A DNA stretch of 40,000 nt from Dongshaea marina (GTDB taxonomy: Bacteria > Pseudomonadota > Gammaproteobacteria > Enterobacterales > Aeromonadaceae): contig NZ_CP028897.1 in assembly GCF_003072645.1 (NCBI RefSeq), positions 655,658 through 695,657 on the forward strand. The letters are read 5' to 3'. Shown here in pieces: positions 4,390-38,078 of the stretch. The notes under the pieces were generated by a model that was not told the DNA's origin, searched no databases, and saw only the letters and a list, made by a program, of their open reading frames with translations. Position 1 is the first letter of the stretch. Each line of letters opens with the position of its first letter. A program made the position numbers and the translations under genes.

Positions 4390-4745
4390 ATACCACTTCT
4401 CTGTGTATTATGATTTGCAGCTGCGCTGCAAGTGCCGGTGCTGACCGGCGGCAGGCAAGGCCGTTCTCAGGCATCCTGCCCTTCACGGCATTGATATATC
4501 CCTATATGGCAAAGGTGCTCCGCGCTTCTGATACACAGGGAAGTGTGAATGTCGCGTTAAACATGGATGTTGTTAGCGGCATGCATCTCCCGGGGCGCCC
4601 CGAACCTCACTTCCTCCTGGGCTCATCTAAGAGTTAAGGCATCACTTAGACATCACATCCATGTGGTGACTAAGCTCTCGCGATATCCCTATCGCTCAGC
4701 CTCAATACTTAACGGTTCGCCTCGGCGTTCGCTCACGGGGAGTTA
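4390..4745 (-). ncRNA. candidate CsrB/RsmZ-like GGA-loop hairpin-array RNA (unit A-left); alternatively a hairpin-array repeat
   Basis: No credible ORF. Minus-strand hairpins GGC-AGGAU-GCC (4470-4480), AUAU-AGGG-AUAU (4494-4507), CAC-AUGGAU-GUG (4654-4665), GCGAU-AGGGAU-AUCGC (4680-4695). Hand count on the plus strand 4441-4750: 9 TCC versus 3 GGA. Shares modules with 34490-34610. Confidence 0.4.
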
Positions 4746-4747
4746 GT

Positions 4748-4850
4748 CCCCGTCTATTTGCGCCGAAAGTTTCAAATAGGAAGCAGAGGGTGAGCGGCAT
4801 GGACACCGCGAAAGGGCAACCAGTACATGGACGTACTGTTGGCCTGATCT
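4748..4850 (+). ncRNA. short GGA-loop hairpin unit (A-right), same family
   Basis: Starts with the module CCCCGTCTATTTGCGCCGAA (19/20 with the minus strand of 13492-13511). It is followed by AGGAAG, GCGG-CAUGGACA-CCGC (4794-4809) and CAGUAC-AUGGAC-GUACUG (4821-4838). 3 GGA versus 0 TCC. Confidence 0.25.
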
Positions 4851-4856
4851 GATATG

Positions 4857-5246
4857 CTATCCCTCTTCGGTGACCTTGACTTCGTAACTGTAGGTCTGTC
4901 CATTAGCCAAAATTAGCGGGTAGATAGCGGTTTGTCCAAGTTTGAGATTTAGCGTACCAAGATCGAGGTTGAGCATAGGGGAAGGTGCCATTGCACTTGA
5001 TGTGGGTAGAGCAAGCTGGCTAGCGAGCTTAATGTGTGATATGTCCAGAGGTTTAACCAATACATCCAGCTTCAATTTATTATCGAGTAACATTTTAGCA
5101 TTTATATTTTGCTTCACGATGATCGTGGGCTGAGCGTAAGCTGCACCGTTATACAGAATACGGGCTTTAACCTGGTAGTTGGGGTGGGCCATAACTGAGG
5201 TTGTGGCTGTGATTAAGCTCAGCCCTAAAACCAATAGGCTTTTCAT
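4857..5246 (-). CDS. hypothetical secreted protein
   Basis: ATG at 5246 with AGGA 6 nt upstream. Signal-peptide-like N-terminus MKSLLVLGLSLITATTSVMA. No recognisable family. Confidence 0.55.
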   Translation of the reverse strand: MKSLLVLGLSLITATTSVMAHPNYQVKARILYNGAAYAQPTIIVKQNINAKMLLDNKLKLDVLVKPLDISHIKLASQLALPTSSAMAPSPMLNLDLGTLNLKLGQTAIYPLILANGQTYSYEVKVTEEG

Positions 5247-5559
5247 GTGCAATCCTTATTAGTTTGCTGCGATTTATTATACGTTCAATAGATCGCAGTG
5301 TGTGGCCCCTTCTCGCTGAGCCGGCCTAATTGCTTTGAACGACTGAGTTTGAGCAGTGTAGCTTTGTTGAGTGTCCACTATTTCTGGTTCAGATCACAGC
5401 TCTATTACTACTTCACAGGGAAAATGATCGATTAAACTTCCTTTATTTTCCCTTTAGAGAAGCTCAGAAAGCTCTGAGCGAGGAACCTTAAGCGTGATAC
5501 TTCTGGGCTTTCTGGGGATCCGCTTAAGTAAGGCTTTTTTCTGGCTCTGTTGCAAAAAT

Positions 5560-10017: not shown

Positions 10018-11418
10018 ATGTCTGAAATCAGTTCAAGGAATGTTGCCGTGTCCGCCAAAACAGCAGTCAATTACCGTCTTCCCCAGGTTGAGCAGCTTCT
10101 GCAGCACAACATACTAGTTCCTTATATCCGGATCCTCAGTCGACCCGTAGTGACCGAGATTATTCGCGCCCAGTTTGCCAAGATCCGTCAATCGCCGCTG
10201 TTTAAGGAGAAGGGAGTCGATGGAATTGATGTGCTGCAGCTTTTGGTGAAAGCCTGCGAGGAGCAACAACTGCGCCGTCAGACCCGGGTGATCAATGCTA
10301 CCGGCATCGCGGTTCATACCAATCTTGGACGCTCTCCTCTATGTCCTGAGCTGTGGGACAGTGTGCGTCATATCAATACCGGCTATAGCAACCTGGAGCT
10401 AGAACTGAGCAGTGGTAAGCGTGGTGGACGCAACGGGCTGCTTTCTACTCTGGTCAATGCCTGGCTGGGCGCCGAAGATTGTGTACTGGTCAATAATAAT
10501 GCCGCTTCTATGTACCTCATCCTGCATGCACTGGCTGCGGGCAAAGAGGTGATCGTTTCCCGGGGTGAGCAGATCCAGATTGGTGGCGGTTTTCGGATCC
10601 CGGATATTTTAGCTCTGTCCGGCTGTAAGCTGGTGGAGGTGGGGACGACCAATATCACCACCAGTGATGATTACATCGATGCGATCACCGAAAATACCGC
10701 CATGGTGTTGATGGTCCATCAATCCAACTTTTCGATTCAGGGGTTCACCGAATCACCCGATATCCAGGATGTGGCGCGTCGCCTGCCGGAGCATGTTCAG
10801 CTGGTGGTGGATCAGGGATCGGGACTGTCAACGGAGCAGTATGCGGACAGTGAAACCTCACTGGCGCGTTATCTGCAAATGGGGGCCGATCTGGTGTGTT
10901 TCTCCGGTGATAAGATCATCGGGGGCCCTCAGGCAGGATTTATCGCAGGGCGCAGTGAGCTCACCAAGATCCTGGCTAAAAATCCTATGATGCGCGCCTT
11001 CAGGCCGGGACGAATTGTGCTGTCACTGCTTGAGGAGCTGCTGGTTCGTAAGCTCAACCAGCTGGATTCAGGGGAGGGGGTTGCCCAGCACGCCCTGAAT
11101 CGTGCACAGCAGACCCGGGAGCTTGCCGATGAGCTGGCTGCTCGCTGGCCTGGCTACGCCCAGGCAACACCGATGCAGATGCAGGTGGGCGGCGGCTCGA
11201 TTCCCAGTGAAACCTATGACTGTTTTGGGCTCACTCTATCTTTGCCGGGTAAGGCGCAGCAGCACCTGGATGCCCTACGGGCTCTTGCGACCCCGATTAT
11301 CGGCTATCTTCAGTCAGAGCGGGTACTCCTGAACCTGGCAACCTTGCTCCCTGAGGATATGGCACTGTTCCTGTCTCAGCTTGATTCCTATTTTGAGGCC
11401 CTTGGCGCACAGGCTTAA
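10018..11418 (+). CDS. selA: L-seryl-tRNA(Sec) selenium transferase
   Basis: 466 aa. INATGIAVHTNLGRS, VSRGEQIQIGGGFRIPD and FSGDKIIGGPQAGFIAG (PLP lysine region) are SelA hallmarks. Confidence 0.92.
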   Translation: MSEISSRNVAVSAKTAVNYRLPQVEQLLQHNILVPYIRILSRPVVTEIIRAQFAKIRQSPLFKEKGVDGIDVLQLLVKACEEQQLRRQTRVINATGIAVHTNLGRSPLCPELWDSVRHINTGYSNLELELSSGKRGGRNGLLSTLVNAWLGAEDCVLVNNNAASMYLILHALAAGKEVIVSRGEQIQIGGGFRIPDILALSGCKLVEVGTTNITTSDDYIDAITENTAMVLMVHQSNFSIQGFTESPDIQDVARRLPEHVQLVVDQGSGLSTEQYADSETSLARYLQMGADLVCFSGDKIIGGPQAGFIAGRSELTKILAKNPMMRAFRPGRIVLSLLEELLVRKLNQLDSGEGVAQHALNRAQQTRELADELAARWPGYAQATPMQMQVGGGSIPSETYDCFGLTLSLPGKAQQHLDALRALATPIIGYLQSERVLLNLATLLPEDMALFLSQLDSYFEALGAQA

Positions 11419-11422
11419 TCAG

Positions 11423-13267
11423 ATGATCTATCAGAATAACTCAGAGTCGGCCTATCAGGCTGTTGTTGGTTTGGCCGGACATGTTGATCATGGTAAGACG
11501 GCGCTGATTGAGGCGCTGACCGGCATGATGACGGCTCGCCCTCATGAGCAGGCGCTGGGGATGACCCAGGATCTGGGGTTTGCCCATTTTGCGGATGATG
11601 CAGGTAATACCATAGGGGTGGTTGATGTACCGGGCCATGAGCGCTACCTGCGTAACATGGTAGCCGGAGTCTGGCATCTCAATGCGTTGATACTGGTGAT
11701 CGCCGCCGATGAGGGATGGATGCCTATGACCACCTCCCACCTGCAGGTGGCTCATGCGATGGGGATCAGCAATATCATCGTCTGTATCAACAAGAGTGAT
11801 AAGGTTTCCTCCGAAGAGCTGGCCGAGGTTGAGGAGCAGGCTCTGGAGCATGTGATGGATATGTCCGGTCTGGTGCCTGAGCTCGTGAGTGTCTCGGCAC
11901 TGAGCGGCGATAATATCCCTGAGCTTAGGGAGCTAATCATTGAGACCCTGACCCAAGATCTTTGTGTGCCTTGTGTAGATTCTGATCAGCCAAAGATAGA
12001 GGCTGAGCCTTTACTCTATGTGGATCGGGCATTTGTGGTTAATGGGATTGGGACCGTGGTTACAGGCACCCTGGCCCAGGGAATACTCTCTATTGGTGAT
12101 AAGGTGCGCTGTTACCCATCAGGCCTTTTGGGAACTGTGCGCTCACTGCAGGCCTATCACCGCCAGCTTGAAAGCGTCTCCGGAACCTGCCGGGTCGCAG
12201 TGAATATCAAGGGGCTGACCCGTAAAGAGGTTGAGCGGGGTCACCTGGTGACCGGGCGTGAGCAGAAGATAGCTCAGTGTGAACAGTGCCTGGTACGACT
12301 CAATCCCTCGGAGGATGAGCCATCGGCGAAACGACAGCGGGAGGTTGAGGTTGCGATTGGTACCTGGCATGGCTTTGCAAAGCTCTGCTATATCCCCAAC
12401 ACCAACCTGGCGCGGTTGATATTTAAAAAGCCGGTCTCGCTGCAGTTTGCCCAACGGCTGGCGATGATTCAAAAAGGCGGGAGCCGCCTGTTGCACGGTG
12501 CTCAGGTGGTATGGACCGACTTTATTCCCTCCTATCAGAAGCGCCGTATCTACACAGCTCTTAATGAATTGCCAGAGAGCCTGACGGCGGAAGCTCTGCC
12601 ACAGCTGCTGCTTAGCCTGCAAGGATATTTTGATGTCGAGCAGATCGCAGGAGATAGCGACTGTCAGGGCGTGACCCTTGGTCCTTATCTGTTTGAATCT
12701 GACTGGCTAGCCAGGGCTCAGGAAAATATTTTGCAGCGCCTTGATAAGGGGTTGTCGCTCAGTAGCGTCGAGCTCAGCGATCAGCTGGAGATCGAAGAGC
12801 CGGTGTTGAATGTCATCATGCAGGAGCTCAAGCAGCGGCAGATCGTACACCTCAGTTATGGCAAATGGCGTCATGGGGAGGGGGATAATGAGGATGAACT
12901 TCCCACAGAGGCGCTAACCCTGTTGCAGCAAACCCGCGATTGCGGCAAGGCGGGGCTTGAGCTTTCCAAGATAAAACTGGCTCCGGGCTCCAAGAAGTGG
13001 CTGCGCCAGCTATGCCACCAGAAATATATTACCGCACTGGATGAAAGCATCTATTACGACATGGGGATCTACCGGGAGATGATCCAGGCGGTGGTCGCCG
13101 ATCACCAGAGTCAGGATCGGATCTCGATGGGGGATATCAAGGATCGCACCGGGCTGAGCCGTAAGTATGCGATCCCCCTGGCCAACCGGATGGAAAAAGA
13201 TGGCTGGGTGCGGCGGGATGGGGATGAGCGAATCATCCTGAAATCCTGGGAAGAGGTTTCGTCTTAA
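11423..13267 (+). CDS. selB: selenocysteine-specific elongation factor
   Basis: ATG 11423 lies 5 nt after the selA stop. 614 aa. G-domain GHVDHGKTALIEALTG, DVPGHERY, NKSD, plus a long winged-helix C-terminal part. Confidence 0.92.
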   Translation: MIYQNNSESAYQAVVGLAGHVDHGKTALIEALTGMMTARPHEQALGMTQDLGFAHFADDAGNTIGVVDVPGHERYLRNMVAGVWHLNALILVIAADEGWMPMTTSHLQVAHAMGISNIIVCINKSDKVSSEELAEVEEQALEHVMDMSGLVPELVSVSALSGDNIPELRELIIETLTQDLCVPCVDSDQPKIEAEPLLYVDRAFVVNGIGTVVTGTLAQGILSIGDKVRCYPSGLLGTVRSLQAYHRQLESVSGTCRVAVNIKGLTRKEVERGHLVTGREQKIAQCEQCLVRLNPSEDEPSAKRQREVEVAIGTWHGFAKLCYIPNTNLARLIFKKPVSLQFAQRLAMIQKGGSRLLHGAQVVWTDFIPSYQKRRIYTALNELPESLTAEALPQLLLSLQGYFDVEQIAGDSDCQGVTLGPYLFESDWLARAQENILQRLDKGLSLSSVELSDQLEIEEPVLNVIMQELKQRQIVHLSYGKWRHGEGDNEDELPTEALTLLQQTRDCGKAGLELSKIKLAPGSKKWLRQLCHQKYITALDESIYYDMGIYREMIQAVVADHQSQDRISMGDIKDRTGLSRKYAIPLANRMEKDGWVRRDGDERIILKSWEEVSS

Positions 13268-13284
13268 CCTGCGGTTGGCTGGTT

Positions 13285-13830
13285 TGTGCCTGCGGCACAC
13301 TAATGCCGCTGCCGAGCGGCAGCGGGAAGAGGGTATTGCTTGTCCAATACCCTCTTCACTCCCAAGGACACCCCGGAATTTGCTTCATCCCCATGCTCCA
13401 TCAGATTCACTAACGGACAGACAGAACGTCCCTGTTCTGACTGTCCTTCAATCACATCCATGTGATTGATACGTTCATCAACAATGAAGCATTCGGCGCA
13501 AATAAACGGGGCCCAACATCCCAGTCAGTTAGCTCGGTGGTGATATCTAAATTTTTTCTCTGTTCTGGTTTCAGCGCTGAAACAAAAAACTCCAGGAGAA
13601 ACTGAAAGTACCTCGGATATCAAATCGAAGAGAGGAAGTTATATCCCTGATCTCGCTTACCCCTCGAAGAGCCTGAGGAAAAAAGTTCCGATCAGACAGT
13701 AATCCCTATATTGACTGCTCTCTCGAAACATCCTGTTTCTCGACTTTAAGCCTCCACGGCTCTCCTCGGAGCTTGCTCATGGGGAGCAAACTTAATATTC
13801 ACTTCGATTATTATTTTCAGTGAGGTGATT
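13285..13830 (-). ncRNA. candidate GGA-loop hairpin-array RNA or repeat (unit B)
   Basis: Minus-strand hairpins: 13-bp stem with loop AGGGAC (13415-13446), CAAUCAC-AUGGAU-GUGAUUG (13449-13468), GAAAC-AGGAU-GUUUC (13725-13739), loop CAAUAUAGGGAUU (13697-13717), and a perfect 13-bp stem with GGACAAG (13326-13357). Hand count on the plus strand: 16 TCC versus 11 GGA. Shared modules at 13492-13511 and 13619-13641. Confidence 0.35.
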
Positions 13831-14378
13831 GCTACAAAAACAATATCATCAATTCCTAGTAGGAATTAACAGTTATGATGCTCTTTAGATGGTAACTTTC
13901 GAAAATCAGTGATTATTTAATATTTATTCTGTGTATCTTTTCCTGTTTGAAAAAGACTGCGGCGACGCTTTGATTCAGTGTGGATCGGTCTGATAATGTA
14001 CTGATATGAAGAGCTATTGAAACCCTGCTTTTCCATTGCTTTCAAACAGTTTTCTTCACCTAGCTCAGCGACGACAGCCTCTAAAACTTTTATGGCATCT
14101 TTTCTCGCTGTTTGCTCAGTCCTCCATTTTCCTGTTTACACCTTCTGCTGGATTATTTCGTCTAACACTGAGGGTAAATGATTTTTACCACGGAATGACA
14201 TTGAGGGAGCTCCTTTGTTTCAAAAGGGCCATATTGCTCCTTTGAAAACTGGATTTCAATAAGACTAGCCATTGTTGGGGTATTTCGACATCTCTTGTAG
14301 CGAAGTCACTAATCCTATCTGCAGGATCGACAGGGATTCATTAAACTTACTTTTAGATCCCCTGGTGAGACCGTCCAT

Positions 14379-15149
14379 GTGATACGACTCGGGTCAGCTG
14401 GCTTCATACTACTACTCTCCATGACCTTTGTCGGAGGTTGCTACTCGGTGCGCTCGGTAGCCAGCACAGCTGAAGCGACGATGACGGTAGCTGTTTCCCA
14501 TTGGCCTCCACGAAAAATGACCACGAAAGATGGCAAGGTCTCTGGTATTGACGTCGACATTATGCGCGAGCTTGCCCGGCGCATGCAGATGCGGGTGATC
14601 TTCTATACCTGCACCTGGATCCGCTGCCAGACCATGGTTCGCTTAGGCTCTGCCGACTTTATCACCAGTGCATCCCGTACCCCGGATCGTGAGCCTTACT
14701 TTCACTTCATCGAGCCCAGCTATGCACCGAATGGGGGCTATGCCTTTTATGTTCGTGCCGACTCCGGGGTGCGGATCGAAAAATATGACGATCTTCATAA
14801 GCACATCATAGGGACCACCATGGGAGCCAAATATATGGAGGTTGGGGCTGATCCAAAGATCTACTGGGTGAGAACCACGGGAACCAGGGAGCTACTGCGT
14901 AAACTCAAGAGCAAGGAGCTGGATGTCATCATCGATTCTGCGGAGCTGATGGACTATTTTCTGAAAAATAATCCAGATGAGAAATTAGCCATTGCCAAGT
15001 CTCCCTATGTCTATATCACTCCTCAGAGGGCATATATGGCGCTTTCCAGGAGATCCGAGCTGGTTCACCTGATCCCCCGGTTTTCTACAGTGTTGCAACA
15101 GATGCTTGATGAGGGAAAAATTGAAGCGATTCTTGAAAACTACAGATAA
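14379..15149 (+). CDS. periplasmic solute-binding protein, family 3 (amino-acid ABC type), lipoprotein, orphan
   Basis: GTG start. Lipobox FVGGC. SBP_bac_3-like core (WPPRKMTTKDGKVSGIDVDIMRELARRM..., DVIIDSAELMDYF). No permease or ATPase partner nearby. Confidence 0.65.
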   Translation: MIRLGSAGFILLLSMTFVGGCYSVRSVASTAEATMTVAVSHWPPRKMTTKDGKVSGIDVDIMRELARRMQMRVIFYTCTWIRCQTMVRLGSADFITSASRTPDREPYFHFIEPSYAPNGGYAFYVRADSGVRIEKYDDLHKHIIGTTMGAKYMEVGADPKIYWVRTTGTRELLRKLKSKELDVIIDSAELMDYFLKNNPDEKLAIAKSPYVYITPQRAYMALSRRSELVHLIPRFSTVLQQMLDEGKIEAILENYR

Positions 15150-27539: not shown

Positions 27540-29684
27540 ATGAAAAAAATCACAACTGTTTGCCCCTATTGTGGAACGGGGTGCAAACTGAAGTTGGTTG
27601 TCGAGAATGACAAGGTGGTGGCTGCGGAGCCTGCGAATGGCCGCACCAATGAAAGCCAGCTTTGTCTTAAAGGCTATTATGGCTGGGACTTTCTCAACGA
27701 TACCAACTTACTGACTCCACGCCTAAAACAGCCGATGATTCGTCGCACCAAGGATTCCGCTCTTGAAGCTGTCTCCTGGGATGAAGCATTGGACTTCACC
27801 GCGAATAAACTGAAGGCGATCAAAGATAAGCATGGTCCGGACGCCATTATCACCACAGGCTCTGCCCGTGGACCCGGTAATGAAGCCAACTATGTGATGC
27901 AAAAACTCACGAGGGCGGTCTTCGGGACCAATAACGTCGATCACTGCGCTAGGGTGTGACACGCTCCCTCAGTCTCCGGTCTGGAGACAACAGTAGGTAA
28001 TGGTGCCATGAGTAACGCCATTCCCGAAATTCAAGATACGAAATGCTTACTCATATTCGGTTACAACGCGGCTGACTCTCACCCGGTTGTAGCAAGACAC
28101 ATTCTGAAAGCACGCGCTAAGGGTGCCAAAGTTATTGTTTGTGACCCACGTAAGATTGAAACTGCGCGGGTTGCGGATCAGTGGCTGGCCCTGAAAAACG
28201 GCTCTAACATGGCCGTGGTTAATGCGCTGGCGAATGTCCTGATCGAAGAGAACCTCTACGACAAGGCGTATGTACAACAAAATGTGGAAGGCTTTGAAGA
28301 GTTCCGCAAGGTTGTAGAAAAGTATACTCCTGAGTCGGTTGAGGAGATCACCGGACTGAAGGCCGATGAGATCCGTCAGGCTGCCCGTACCTATGCCGAG
28401 GCATCTGAAGCGATGATCCTGTGGGGCATGGGTGTGACCCAGTATGGTCAGGCGGTTGACGTGGTGCGTGGCTTGGCGGGTCTTGCCCTGCTGACCGGTA
28501 ACTTTGGCCGTCGTGGCGTGGGTTGTGGTCCGGTTCGTGGCCAGAACAACGTTCAGGGTACCTGTGACATGGGTATGCTGCCTAATGTCTATCCTGGCTA
28601 CCAGTCGGTTGAGGATGATGCGGTTCGCGAGAAGTTTGAAAAAGCCTGGGGCGTTAAACTTTCTGCGAAGCCGGGCTACAAGCTGACCGAGATCACTCAC
28701 AAGGTGGAAGAGGGTAAGTGTAAGGCCTTCTACATCTTTGGTGAGGATCCGGCTCAGACAGAAGCCGATCTGAACGAGCTGCGTGAAACCCTGCGTAAGA
28801 TGGAGCTGGTAATTGTTCAGGATATCTTCATGACTCAGACTGCTGAGTTTGCGGATGTAATCTTCCCGGCGACCAGCTGGGGTGAACATGAAGGCGTTTA
28901 CAGCTCTGCGGACCGTGGTTTCCAGCGCTTTAGCAAGGCGGTGACTCCACCACCGAATGTGAAGCCTGACTGGGAGATCTTCTGCCTGCTGGCTCAGAAA
29001 CTGGGTTACCAGATGTCCTACAACAACACCCAGGAGATCTGGGATGAGTTGCGGGGTCTGTGTCCTAAGTATGCAGGTGCGTCCTACGAGAAGATGGAAG
29101 GCTTGAAATCGGTTCAGTGGCCATGCCCAACCGACGATCATCCGGGAACCTCCTTCCTGTTTGAAGGAAACAAGTTCACCACTCCATCGGGTAAGGGACA
29201 GCTGATCGCCGCCGACTGGCGTCCACCGCATGAGCAGCCGGATGAGGAGTATCCTCTGGTGCTGTCTACCGTGCGTGAAGTGGGTCACTACTCCTGCCGC
29301 TCGATGACGGGTAACTGTGCCGCGCTACAGACTCTGGCCGATGAGCCGGGTTATGTGCAGATCCATCCTGATGATGGTAAGGCTCTGGGTGTTGAGGATC
29401 AGCAGTTGGTCTGGATCTCCTCGCGCCGCGGTAAGGTTATCACGCGTGCGAACTTTAATGACCGGGTGAACAAGGGTGTGGTTTACATGACCTATCAATG
29501 GTGGATCGGTGCTTGTAACGAGCTGACCATTGAGCATGTGGATCCTATCTCTAAGACCCCTGAGTATAAGTTCTGTGCGGTGAAAATCGAGCAGATTGAA
29601 GATCAGGCTTCGGCTGAAAATTACGTACAGACAGAGTACAGTGATATGAAACGTCGCCTGAAGAATCATGTAGCGAACGCATAA
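27540..29684 (+). CDS. fdhF: formate dehydrogenase H, selenocysteine-containing (UGA at codon 140 read as Sec)
   Basis: ORFs 27540-27959 and 28008-29684 are in the same frame, separated only by TGA 27957-27959. The context VDHCARV-U-HAPSVSGLETTVGNGAMSNAI equals the FdhH Sec140 site. N-terminal CPYCGTGC 4Fe-4S motif. 714 codons. Confidence 0.95.
27960..27992 (+). promoter_or_regulatory. bacterial SECIS element of fdhF
   Basis: 11 nt after UGA comes the hairpin GUCUCC-GGUCU-GGAGAC (27972-27988). Spacing and the GGUCU apical loop match the E. coli fdhF SECIS as recalled. Confidence 0.85.
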
Positions 29685-34049: not shown

Positions 34050-34440
34050 TAGCTGACTTTTCATTGTGCTTCGCACGGCTAAATTGCAGCTGCGCAGCAT
34101 GATTGTCGGGGTGCCGGCAGCACATTACTTTTGTACCGCCAAAAGTAATCAAAAGCTCCCTTCGCGCTGCGAGTCCCTCCGCAGCTCGATGATGACCATC
34201 CTTGGTCATCTATCCCAGTTCAGCTTCCTGCTTCTCGTTCCATTACCCTTGGGGTAATTTCACCCTATCTCACGTTACGTTGCTCTGGGAGCAACTTCCC
34301 CCCTCCGAAGAGCTGAGGGGTGTACTCGCAGCATCCATGCTGCTCCACTTCAAATCACTTTATGATTTTTCGGCACGAATCAAAGGGGGCTCTAAAACTA
34401 CCTCTTCGATTTAGTTTTGGTGACTTTTTCGAGCAAAGCA
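34050..34440 (-). ncRNA. candidate GGA-loop hairpin-array RNA (unit C-left)
   Basis: Hand count on the plus strand: 11 TCC versus 1 GGA. Minus-strand hairpins GAUGACCA-AGGA-UGGUCAUC (34191-34210), GCAGC-AUGGAU-GCUGC (34328-34343), GCUGCGGAGGGACUCGCAGC (34166-34185). Further GGA in AAUGGAAC, GCAGGAAGC, CUGGGAU, AAGGGAG. Confidence 0.4.
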
Positions 34441-34790
34441 GGAAGCTTCAAGCTGTAATACCGAATCAAATCGAAGAGAGGAAGTTAACCCCCGTGAGCG
34501 AGCGCCGAGGCGAGCCGTAGAAGATTCAGGTCGAATCACATGGATGTGATGAGAGCTTAGCCGCTACAGGGATGTTGCGTCTAAGCGGTGCCTTAATGCT
34601 CAGGTGAGCCGAGGGTTAAGCGAGATCCGGGGCGCGAGGGGATTGCAAAGGGGAAAGGCGTTTGCCCCTTTGCTCGCTGTCGGGCGATCCCGACAATTAC
34701 TGCAAATCTGCCATCCGCAGGATAAAGATCGACGTAGTTTGACCTGCGGTCAGCTGATTTGTGCCACAGGCACAAAACAGCTGGCTTTTA
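34441..34790 (+). ncRNA. candidate GGA-loop hairpin-array RNA (unit C-right) with terminator
   Basis: 7 GGA versus 3 TCC. Hairpins AUCAC-AUGGAU-GUGAU (34535-34550) and GCUUAGCCGC-UACAGGGAUGUU-GCGUCUAAGC (34555-34586; the loop matches the CsrA SELEX motif ACARGGAUGU), plus GCAAAGGGG...CCCCUUUGC (34645-34673). Ends in a 15-bp stem with a U-rich tail. Confidence 0.45.
34751..34790 (+). terminator. terminator-like hairpin closing unit C-right
   Basis: CAGCTGATTTGTGCC-ACA-GGCACAAAACAGCTG (one mismatch) followed by GCTTTTAGTCGCAATTTTT. Confidence 0.55.
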
Positions 34791-34878
34791 GTCGCAATTT
34801 TTGAGCAATGCTGTTGACTCCCGGGCTATTTTTCGCTGGAAATAGATCATCTGAAAGATAGACTGGAGTCATACGGGC

Positions 34879-38001: not shown

Positions 38002-38078
38002 TGGTGGCCCCTGCTGGACTTGAACCAGCGACCAATCGATTATGAGTCGACTGCTCTAACCAACTGAGCTAAGGGGCC
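38002..38078 (-). tRNA. ileX: tRNA with CAU anticodon, ileX-type tRNA-Ile2 (lysidine-dependent) rather than tRNA-Met
   Basis: The reverse complement GGCCCCTTAGCTCAGTTGGTTAGAGCAGTCGACTCATAATCGATTGGTCGCTGGTTCAAGTCCAGCAGGGGCCACCA is almost identical to E. coli ileX as recalled. Clean cloverleaf. Confidence 0.85.

Follow-up and report, generated by a model that had tools for sequence, protein, structure and literature searches.

Tandem copies of a 146-nt two-hairpin module related to TwoAYGGAY lie downstream of selB in Dongshaea marina and are candidate CsrA decoys

TwoAYGGAY (RF01731) is an RNA motif described by Weinberg et al. (2010, PMC2864571) from human-gut sequences, Clostridiales, and gamma-proteobacteria, in which two AYGGAY loops stand above a closing stem, P1, that is often very large. 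Several copies in the published alignment come from Psychromonas ingrahamii, some of them separated by 2-9 kb, with both strands represented, and one comes from Shewanella amazonensis. The motif has been an orphan since 2010. Rfam places it in the Csr/Rsm clan (CL00106) and labels it Cis-reg, and Gardner and Eldai (2015) found that sequences in it strongly match the motif bound by CsrA and proposed that it sequesters CsrA. Here we examined a window of 40,000 nt from Dongshaea marina (Aeromonadaceae), meaning the whole stretch of DNA analyzed, in which the spacer following selB (tract B) and two tracts elsewhere (A and C) carry hairpins with GGA in their loops. A sequence-only reading had proposed that tract B encodes a minus-strand CsrB-like RNA or, alternatively, two shorter units. 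We found that tract B is two tandem copies of one 146-nt module, and not a loose array of hairpins, and that by its sequence and predicted fold the module is a divergent relative of TwoAYGGAY.

The module became apparent when a repeat search related 13645-13784 and 4595-4745, both on the minus strand, to 34490-34631 on the plus strand of tract C with 70-74% identity. The tract B copy, B1, aligned over its full length with A1 and C1 (Table 1), and was 70% identical over 142 nt to 34490-34631. RNAalifold folded the three paralogues into a long imperfect closing stem and two hairpins, with compensatory changes at 14 of the 47 pairs. A covariance model, R1, was built from these three copies and run unfiltered over the window. 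It recovered B2, a full module outside the building set that was also detected by nhmmer (E 5e-6), together with a partial plus-strand copy at 4790-4849 (26.4 bits) and, on the minus strand at 34345-34326, a match to one hairpin. In each module, a long P1 stem bears two hairpins, both with GGA in the loop. Read along the minus strand, tract B comprises B1, a 127-nt spacer, B2, the hairpin with GGACAAG at its tip, and two GC-rich hairpins that abut the selB stop codon. The second option of the sequence-only reading, two shorter units, was in this respect borne out.

Table 1. Modules, hairpins, and other features of tract B and the full sibling modules of tracts A and C (window coordinates)
Feature	Position	Strand	Basis or remark
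Unit B1, full module, 146 nt	13641..13786	-	R1 144.9 bits (one of the three R1 building sequences)
Unit B2, second full module	13368..13513	-	Full-length R1 match (model 1-148), 62.3 bits, E 1e-12; not in R1 building set
Spacer between B2 and B1	13514..13640		Vestige, 16-nt palindrome, and 23-mer
Perfect 13-bp hairpin, GGACAAG at tip	13326..13357	-	Directly 3' of B2; no U tract after it on either strand
GC-rich hairpins beside the selB stop codon (13286-13300, 13306-13325)	13268..13325		Sequence reading and comparison with tract C
Weak sigma-70-like CTGAAA-17-TATTAA, 8/12	13792..13820	-	By eye; below scan criteria
17-bp palindrome AATTCCTA-G-TAGGAATT	13851..13867		Centre about 73 nt upstream of B1; unique in window
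Unit A1, full module	4742-4595	-	Tract A; R1 161.8 bits
Unit C1, full module	34488-34635	+	Tract C

In B1, the P1 stem is long and imperfect, with a 5' arm at 13784-13743 and a 3' arm at 13686-13644. Hairpin 1 (13742-13722) has the loop ACAGGAUG and hairpin 2 (13720-13690) the loop AUAGGGAUU, which places the two GGAs at 13733 and 13705, 28 nt apart. Hairpin 1 of B2 (13469-13448) is a 9-bp stem, CAAUCACA-UGGA-UGUGAUUG, and hairpin 2 (13446-13415) is GGACAGUCAGAAC-AGGGAC-GUUCUGUCUGUCC, whose 13-bp stem contains a single U.U mismatch; its 5' arm had been given in idealized form by the sequence-only reading. The B2 GGAs, at 13459 and 13431, are likewise 28 nt apart. The 5' arm of B2, CCCCGUUUAUUUGCGCCGAAUG, is common to the plus-strand copy in tract A and is 82% identical to 4774-4732. 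An alignment of the type-2 units A2, B2, and C3 showed that they have the 5' arm and hairpin 1 in common; the P1 stem of A2 and C3 was not definable.

Further elements accompany the modules of the other two tracts. In tract A, the plus-strand unit A2 (4745-4892) stands back to back with A1 and overlaps the stop-codon region of a secreted-looking open reading frame of 131 aa (4857-5252, minus strand). In tract C, a terminator hairpin with a U tail lies downstream of C1, at 34752-34792. The minus strand upstream of C1 (34041-34350) is richer in GGA than any other minus-strand part of the window and contains four perfect GGA-loop hairpins (34343-34328, a pair at 34210-34166, and others), a number that none of 1000 shuffles reached.

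All hairpins listed by the sequence-only reading were present in tract B at the coordinates it gave, as was the palindrome at 13851-13867. Those not yet described are, on the minus strand, GAAAC-AGGAU-GUUUC (13739-13725), CAGUCAAU-AUAGGGAUU-ACUG (13717-13697), and the perfect 13-bp stem at 13357-13326, whose loop is GACAAG, so that its GGA starts with the last base of the stem. Three more hairpins were borne out: a GC hairpin (13306-13325), a small one (13286-13300), and one on the plus strand (13773-13789). The earlier hand count for 13285-13870 was exact, at 16 TCC and 11 GGA on the plus strand. The hairpin at 13326-13357 could provide an extra GGA site, a 3'-end stabilizer, or both. The sequence-only reading had suggested the GC-rich hairpins beside selB as a putative bidirectional stop. 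Part of that stretch, 13268-13299, repeats in plus orientation the tract C terminator hairpin (34743-34774; 81% over 32 nt), in truncated form and without the 3' arm and the U run.

The density of these structures was well above expectation. The spacer contained 12 perfect inverted repeats 7 bp or more in length, several of them nested registers of a few palindromes, versus 0.49 expected (0 of 500 shuffles). The minus strand of 13285-13800 had four perfect hairpins with GGA in the loop and 6 bp or more in the stem, versus 0.21 expected (0 of 1000 dinucleotide shuffles), and the plus strand of the same interval held none. In total, the GGA-loop hairpins on the minus strand of tract B number five. 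Because raw GGA density was only about 1.8-fold above background (27/kb versus approximately 15/kb), the signal lies in the placement of GGA rather than in its number.

The predicted structure was examined across five copies, using an alignment fitted to R1 with B2 outside the R1 building set. In this alignment, 90.7% of cells paired, versus 32-38% when the partners were slid, and 24 of the 47 pairs had changed on both sides; 0 of 500 shuffles reached the observed values. The closing rod of about 28 predicted pairs is kept in the four full copies, and compensatory changes fall in helices 1-3. These data argue that the module structure is under selection. All of the covariation derives from paralogues inside the one window, since no orthologues were found in the collections searched.

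The same alignment bears on which strand is informative. GGA is kept in 10 of 10 apical loops of the five copies, always on the same strand as the asymmetric arms, and the distance from GGA to GGA is exactly 28 nt in all five although the stems differ. On the GGA strand, G.U pairs outnumber A.C mismatches by 12 to 7, a count that weakly favors the minus strand. Folding energy was rejected as a strand test, since the minimum free energy z-scores of the minus and plus strands are similar (-5.8 and -5.4) and carry no strand information. The sequence-only reading had singled out the minus strand, and every GGA-loop hairpin of tract B does lie there. Independent transcription of tract B from that strand is a step that we infer.

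We next consider how the modules relate to described RNA families. At gathering thresholds, Rfam returned only two tRNAs from the entire window. A permissive Rfam scan gave a single relevant match in tract B, to TwoAYGGAY, at 13471-13411 on the minus strand within B2 (38.9 bits, E 2e-4); C1 scored 31.4 bits and A2 17.6 bits, and B1 and A1 were not reported. No copy reached the gathering cut-off of 43 bits. All of these matches were local, covering model positions 47-111 of 168, such that the two hairpins align to the Rfam model and the Dongshaea P1 arms do not. The loops are nonetheless of the TwoAYGGAY kind, AUGGAU and AGGGAC in B2 and CAGGAU and AGGGAU in B1, and the predicted rod of about 28 pairs closing both hairpins corresponds to the large P1 of that family. 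The affinity to Csr-type RNAs suggested by the sequence-only reading is thus upheld to the extent that the closest RNA family belongs to the Csr/Rsm clan.

Likeness to individual seed sequences extends beyond the loops. Hairpin 2 of B2 (CAGAACAGGGACGUUCUGUCUG) is identical at 19 of 22 positions to a Psychromonas ingrahamii seed (CAGUACAGGGACGUAAUGUCUG), and its AGGGAC loop also occurs in a Psychromonas seed. The GGUGC(C/G)UUAA that follows hairpin 2 in C1 and A1 recurs in the same Psychromonas seed as the B2 hairpin. The P1 ends of the Shewanella amazonensis seed, CCCC... and ...GGGGCGCC, resemble those of the Dongshaea type-1 units. On these grounds we assign the modules to TwoAYGGAY, as divergent, sub-threshold, and unannotated members.

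On balance we lean toward a function for these modules as CsrA decoys, each capturing a CsrA dimer so that the RNA lowers free CsrA. To our knowledge, CsrA is nearly universal in gamma-proteobacteria. Its preferred ligand, reportedly obtained by systematic evolution of ligands by exponential enrichment (SELEX) in work attributed to Dubey and colleagues (2005), is said to be RUACARGGAUGU presented in a hairpin loop, and loops such as CACAUGGAUGUG and ACAGGGACGU fit this consensus closely. A spacing of 28 nt reportedly falls within the range that a CsrA dimer can bridge, a result attributed to Mercante and colleagues (2009). In the mechanism that we propose, tract B would be transcribed from the minus strand as one RNA of about 0.5 kb or as two shorter ones. 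Each module would present two high-affinity CsrA sites, the loop GGA motifs A(N)GGA(Y), exactly 28 nt apart, and one CsrA (RsmA) dimer would be captured per module, bridging both loops. Tract B would then hold at least two CsrA dimers, and its RNA would lower free CsrA alongside the sibling modules of tracts A and C.

A number of results weigh against this proposal, and several concern the features expected of a CsrB-type RNA. Of the five features used by Kulkarni et al. (2006, PMC1488887) to recognize such RNAs, tract B has two, an intergenic location and GGA recurring in predicted loops or free regions; it lacks the AGGA/ARGGA density, the rho-independent terminator, and the upstream UvrY/GacA/VarA site. 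Its minus strand has 7 AGGA/ARGGA motifs per 516 nt, versus 21 per 416-420 nt in Vibrio fischeri CsrB1/2, and tract B is not the window maximum for this density. The Rfam models of CsrB, CsrC, and RsmX/Y/Z gave no match in the permissive scan. No U-tailed terminator was found in a scan of the minus strand, the strong hairpins at 13285-13357 being without U tails as the sequence-only reading had noted, and no sigma-70 promoter passed. The claim of a minus-strand CsrB-like RNA stands in part: the GGA loops are on the minus strand and the best match is to the Csr/Rsm clan, but as regards family tract B is not CsrB-like, and the match to CsrB, CsrC, or RsmX/Y/Z, the AGGA density, and the terminator are wanting.

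No convincing UvrY/GacA/VarA box, whether TGTRAG-N6-CTYACA or the Vibrio form TGTGMGAGATCTCTYACA (consensus from PMC6262261), was found near tracts A, B, or C. Allowing up to 3 mismatches, the VarA-specific pattern matched once in the window, inside a coding region, and the generic pattern matched 30 times versus 41 expected; one of the 30 (13819-13836, 3 mismatches) lies upstream of B1, which is at chance level. Upstream of tracts A and C there was no box match even with up to 6 mismatches. UvrY itself is documented in Aeromonas. The weak sigma-70-like element noted by eye (Table 1) would put the start of transcription at approximately 13786, the first base of B1, and with 8 of 12 positions it was too weak to be counted as evidence. 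The palindrome at 13851-13867, which the sequence-only reading had noted where a minus-strand promoter or activator site would be expected, is real as a palindrome, but it has no likeness to a UvrY or VarA site and no counterpart near the other module copies, and as many palindromes arose in 37 of 500 shuffles of this AT-rich subregion.

The remaining points on this side concern the copies as a set. Homology among them begins and ends at the closing stem, with no common promoter or regulator site visible. They occur in both orientations, A2 and the hairpins upstream in tract C opposing A1 and C1, and the inverted position of B1 relative to a 23-mer (described below) suggests rearrangement, possibly with decay. 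Dongshaea is a monotypic genus and offered no orthologue for comparison, and in the literature searched we met no experiment on whether TwoAYGGAY acts as a CsrA decoy.

The alternative that survives best, which we nevertheless regard as unlikely, is that these are structured RNAs of the TwoAYGGAY type with a partner other than CsrA, such as a dimeric RNA-binding protein or a base-pairing partner of the loops, or that they act in cis on neighboring transcripts. The Cis-reg label of Rfam and the orphan status of the motif are compatible with this explanation. CsrB/Rsm RNAs have neither the strict 28-nt spacing nor the long P1 rod, the canonical BarA/UvrY control site was not found, and in tracts A and C hairpins with GGA loops and with UCC loops occur on one strand. 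What favors CsrA instead is that 28 nt is within the range reportedly bridged by its dimer. In addition, the loops are close to the CsrA consensus, and the independent motif analysis of Gardner and Eldai (2015) agrees.

It is also improbable, in our estimation, that the modules are a palindromic intergenic repeat, of the repetitive extragenic palindrome (REP), REP doublet (REPIN), or miniature inverted-repeat transposable element (MITE) kind, that spreads at the DNA level with RNA being incidental and tract B a graveyard of scrambled copies. This explanation draws on the arrangement of the copies. Counting partial ones, at least six copies are spread over three intergenic regions of the 40-kb window, and both orientations occur. 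In tract A, A1 (minus strand) and A2 (plus strand) are inverted back to back around a common GGGGAGUUAGUCCCC. Homology ends at the closing stem, partial copies exist, and at approximately 13517-13528 on the plus strand, after the B2 5' arm, is a 12-nt vestige of the start of a divergent type-1 unit. An exact 23-mer, ATCAAATCGAAGAGAGGAAGTTA, occurs in the same DNA orientation at 13619-13641 and 34465-34487 (both plus strand), and the units adjoining it, B1 and C1, are about 70% identical and oppositely oriented. The failure to find a promoter, terminator, or regulator box also counts in its favor.

These loci clearly bear the marks of local duplication and inversion, in a manner much like that described for the csrB siblings in Vibrio (PMC6262261), and these signs of rearrangement keep the repeat explanation alive. 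Inversion of B1 in situ was considered as a mechanism but not adopted; the 23-mer supports some rearrangement, but similarity is confined to one side of the unit. Within tract C, the 23-mer pairs with 34399-34411. Between B1 and B2, at 13568-13583, is a perfect 16-nt palindrome, GTTTCAGCGCTGAAAC, bordered by a run of T at one end and of A at the opposite end, which is not a canonical terminator on either strand.

Several observations speak against a DNA-level repeat. Repeat families keep their stem sequence, whereas here the stems differ by about 30% and pairing is kept by compensatory changes; among the copies within the window, 70-74% identity with compensatory pairing is atypical of REP or MITE-like repeats. 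The loops are the most conserved part, with fixed polarity and 28-nt spacing, neither of which would be constrained in a DNA palindrome. Weinberg et al. (PMC2864571) did not flag TwoAYGGAY as repetitive. Finally, the module was not found in the other genomes and collections searched. We compared 74 selB loci, each with flanks of 10 kb, from as many other gammaproteobacterial species (1.49 Mb, including Photobacterium, Vibrio, Aeromonas, Endozoicomonadaceae, and others), and blastn, nhmmer, and R1 detected no module copy in these selB neighborhoods. SelB of the window is 100% identical to the NCBI protein of D. marina, and the best SelB identity outside D. marina was 69%, so these loci are not from close relatives; that no orthologues were found follows from the host genus being monotypic. 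Exact-pattern scans of metagenomes gave no match for type 1 and one chance match for type 2, in a high-GC coding region, those of viral contigs gave none for either type, and plasmid records searched by BLAST gave nothing relevant.

We consider it very improbable that the hairpins merely belong to selB mRNA on the plus strand, as a 3' untranslated region, terminator, or stabilizer with no minus-strand RNA, since, even though they start 18 nt past the selB stop codon, 13268-13299 is related to the plus-strand terminator hairpin of tract C, and the plus strand folds almost equally well (z = -5.4), none of the plus-strand stems has a U tract after it, a terminator would need far less than 500 nt of conserved modules, the conservation and polarity of the loops indicate the minus strand, and copies of the module stand at other sites in the window without selB. 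After the selB stop codon there is no intrinsic terminator comprising a GC-rich stem and a U tract on the plus strand, and the only terminator-like site that the scan reported in the spacer is 13773-13789, 500 nt downstream of selB.

An extension of the CsrA-decoy reading, to which we give very little credence, is that the module is a strand-switchable element. It draws on the opposite orientations beside an identical 23-mer in tracts B and C and for the divergent units of tract A and, more loosely, of tract C. Were both strands transcribed, or were units to invert through their closing-stem repeats, the cell would produce GGA decoys and complementary antisense RNAs with UCC loops. Such antisense RNAs could neutralize the decoys, which would amount to an anti-sponge, or to an invertible on/off layer, over CsrA titration.

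Tract B occupies a 1.1-kb spacer between selB (11381-13267, plus strand) and a gene for a family-3 solute-binding protein (14379-15149, plus strand). Upstream of selB are selC and selA, and beyond the spacer is a formate-hydrogenlyase-type operon. The GC content falls from 55% to 37-45% in the spacer. In agreement with the sequence-only reading, which saw no convincing open reading frame in the approximately 1.1 kb after selB, none longer than 69 aa was found in 13268-14378, and the longest frames had no Pfam match. A 53-aa frame at 13300-13461 on the minus strand was dismissed because its start falls within the hairpin 1 loop and the paralogues contain no equivalent frame.

The AT-rich half of the spacer has features of its own. 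On the minus strand, 13917-14260 has the highest minus-strand AGGA/ARGGA density of the window and contains two mini-frames (15 and 21 aa) whose Shine-Dalgarno sites, AAGGAG, are strong; after them comes a frame of about 70 aa that lacks a start and ends at 13917. None of the frames in this half matched Pfam. This region may represent a decayed gene or small-peptide genes. At 14218-14247, about 130 nt upstream of the gene for the solute-binding protein, there is an imperfect palindrome of 30 nt (TTTCAAAAGG...CCTTTGAAA), together with a direct GCTCCTTTG repeat, which could be an operator.

Two observations were made elsewhere in the window. The plus-strand frames 27540-27959 and 28008-29684 are separated by an in-frame TGA (27957-27959) followed by HAPSVSGLETTVGNGAMSN, and a sub-threshold match to the Rfam model SECIS_3 (24.4 bits) lies at 27954-28012. 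The two frames appear to be a single fdhF-type selenoprotein gene, which agrees with the presence of the selC-selA-selB cluster in the same window. A tRNA at 38005-38078 on the minus strand gave a plus-strand match (38004-38078) to the Rfam model Plastid-ycf2 5'UTR, where UTR is untranslated region; at 40.7 bits this is below the cut-off and is a spurious antisense-tRNA artefact.

As new relatives of a known orphan family, the Dongshaea modules are an incremental rather than a surprising finding. Their value lies in providing, in a cultured species of Aeromonadaceae, at least four intact modules within 30 kb, a compact natural set of variants for a family whose CsrA-decoy role was proposed in 2015. 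Because the stems differ and the loops and 28-nt spacing are the same, the question of whether one module binds one CsrA dimer is directly testable. Our literature search found no paper identifying Csr decoy RNAs of the Aeromonadales, though UvrY matters in that order. The Rfam cut-off misses the Dongshaea relatives, and TwoAYGGAY is therefore probably under-annotated in marine gamma-proteobacteria.

Compared with known systems, the modules share with CsrB, CsrC, the Vibrio CsrB-D RNAs, and RsmX/Y/Z their intergenic location, hairpin-loop GGAs with flanks of the CsrA consensus, and the Rfam clan of their best match. Like the csrB genes of Vibrio (PMC6262261), the Dongshaea modules are sibling copies that arose by duplication. 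They differ from CsrB/Rsm RNAs in an AGGA/ARGGA density about 3-fold lower and in having no covariance-model match, upstream box, or rho-independent terminator, and in architecture as well, being a rod and two hairpins at fixed spacing, whereas CsrB/Rsm RNAs are strings of many short hairpins. With REP, the bacterial interspersed mosaic element (BIME), and REPIN they have in common that they are intergenic, hairpin-forming, multi-copy, of alternating orientation, and prone to local rearrangement; unlike those repeats, their stems vary while the loops and spacing are conserved, their substitutions are compensatory, and the unit, at 146 nt, is much longer.

The closest likeness is to TwoAYGGAY. 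Two of the Dongshaea units are in tandem and the units are clustered within 30 kb, both unlike that family. The GGA-to-GGA spacing is similar, 28 nt versus 29-30 nt in the TwoAYGGAY seeds and consensus that we counted. In both, a large P1 closes a pair of neighboring hairpins whose terminal loops read A(Y/R)GGAY, and the linker and post-hairpin residues (GA/AG, GGUGC.UUAA), like hairpin 2 of B2, nearly match the P. ingrahamii seed. As in TwoAYGGAY, the host is a gamma-proteobacterium and the copies are multiple, some of them a few kb apart, and on both strands.

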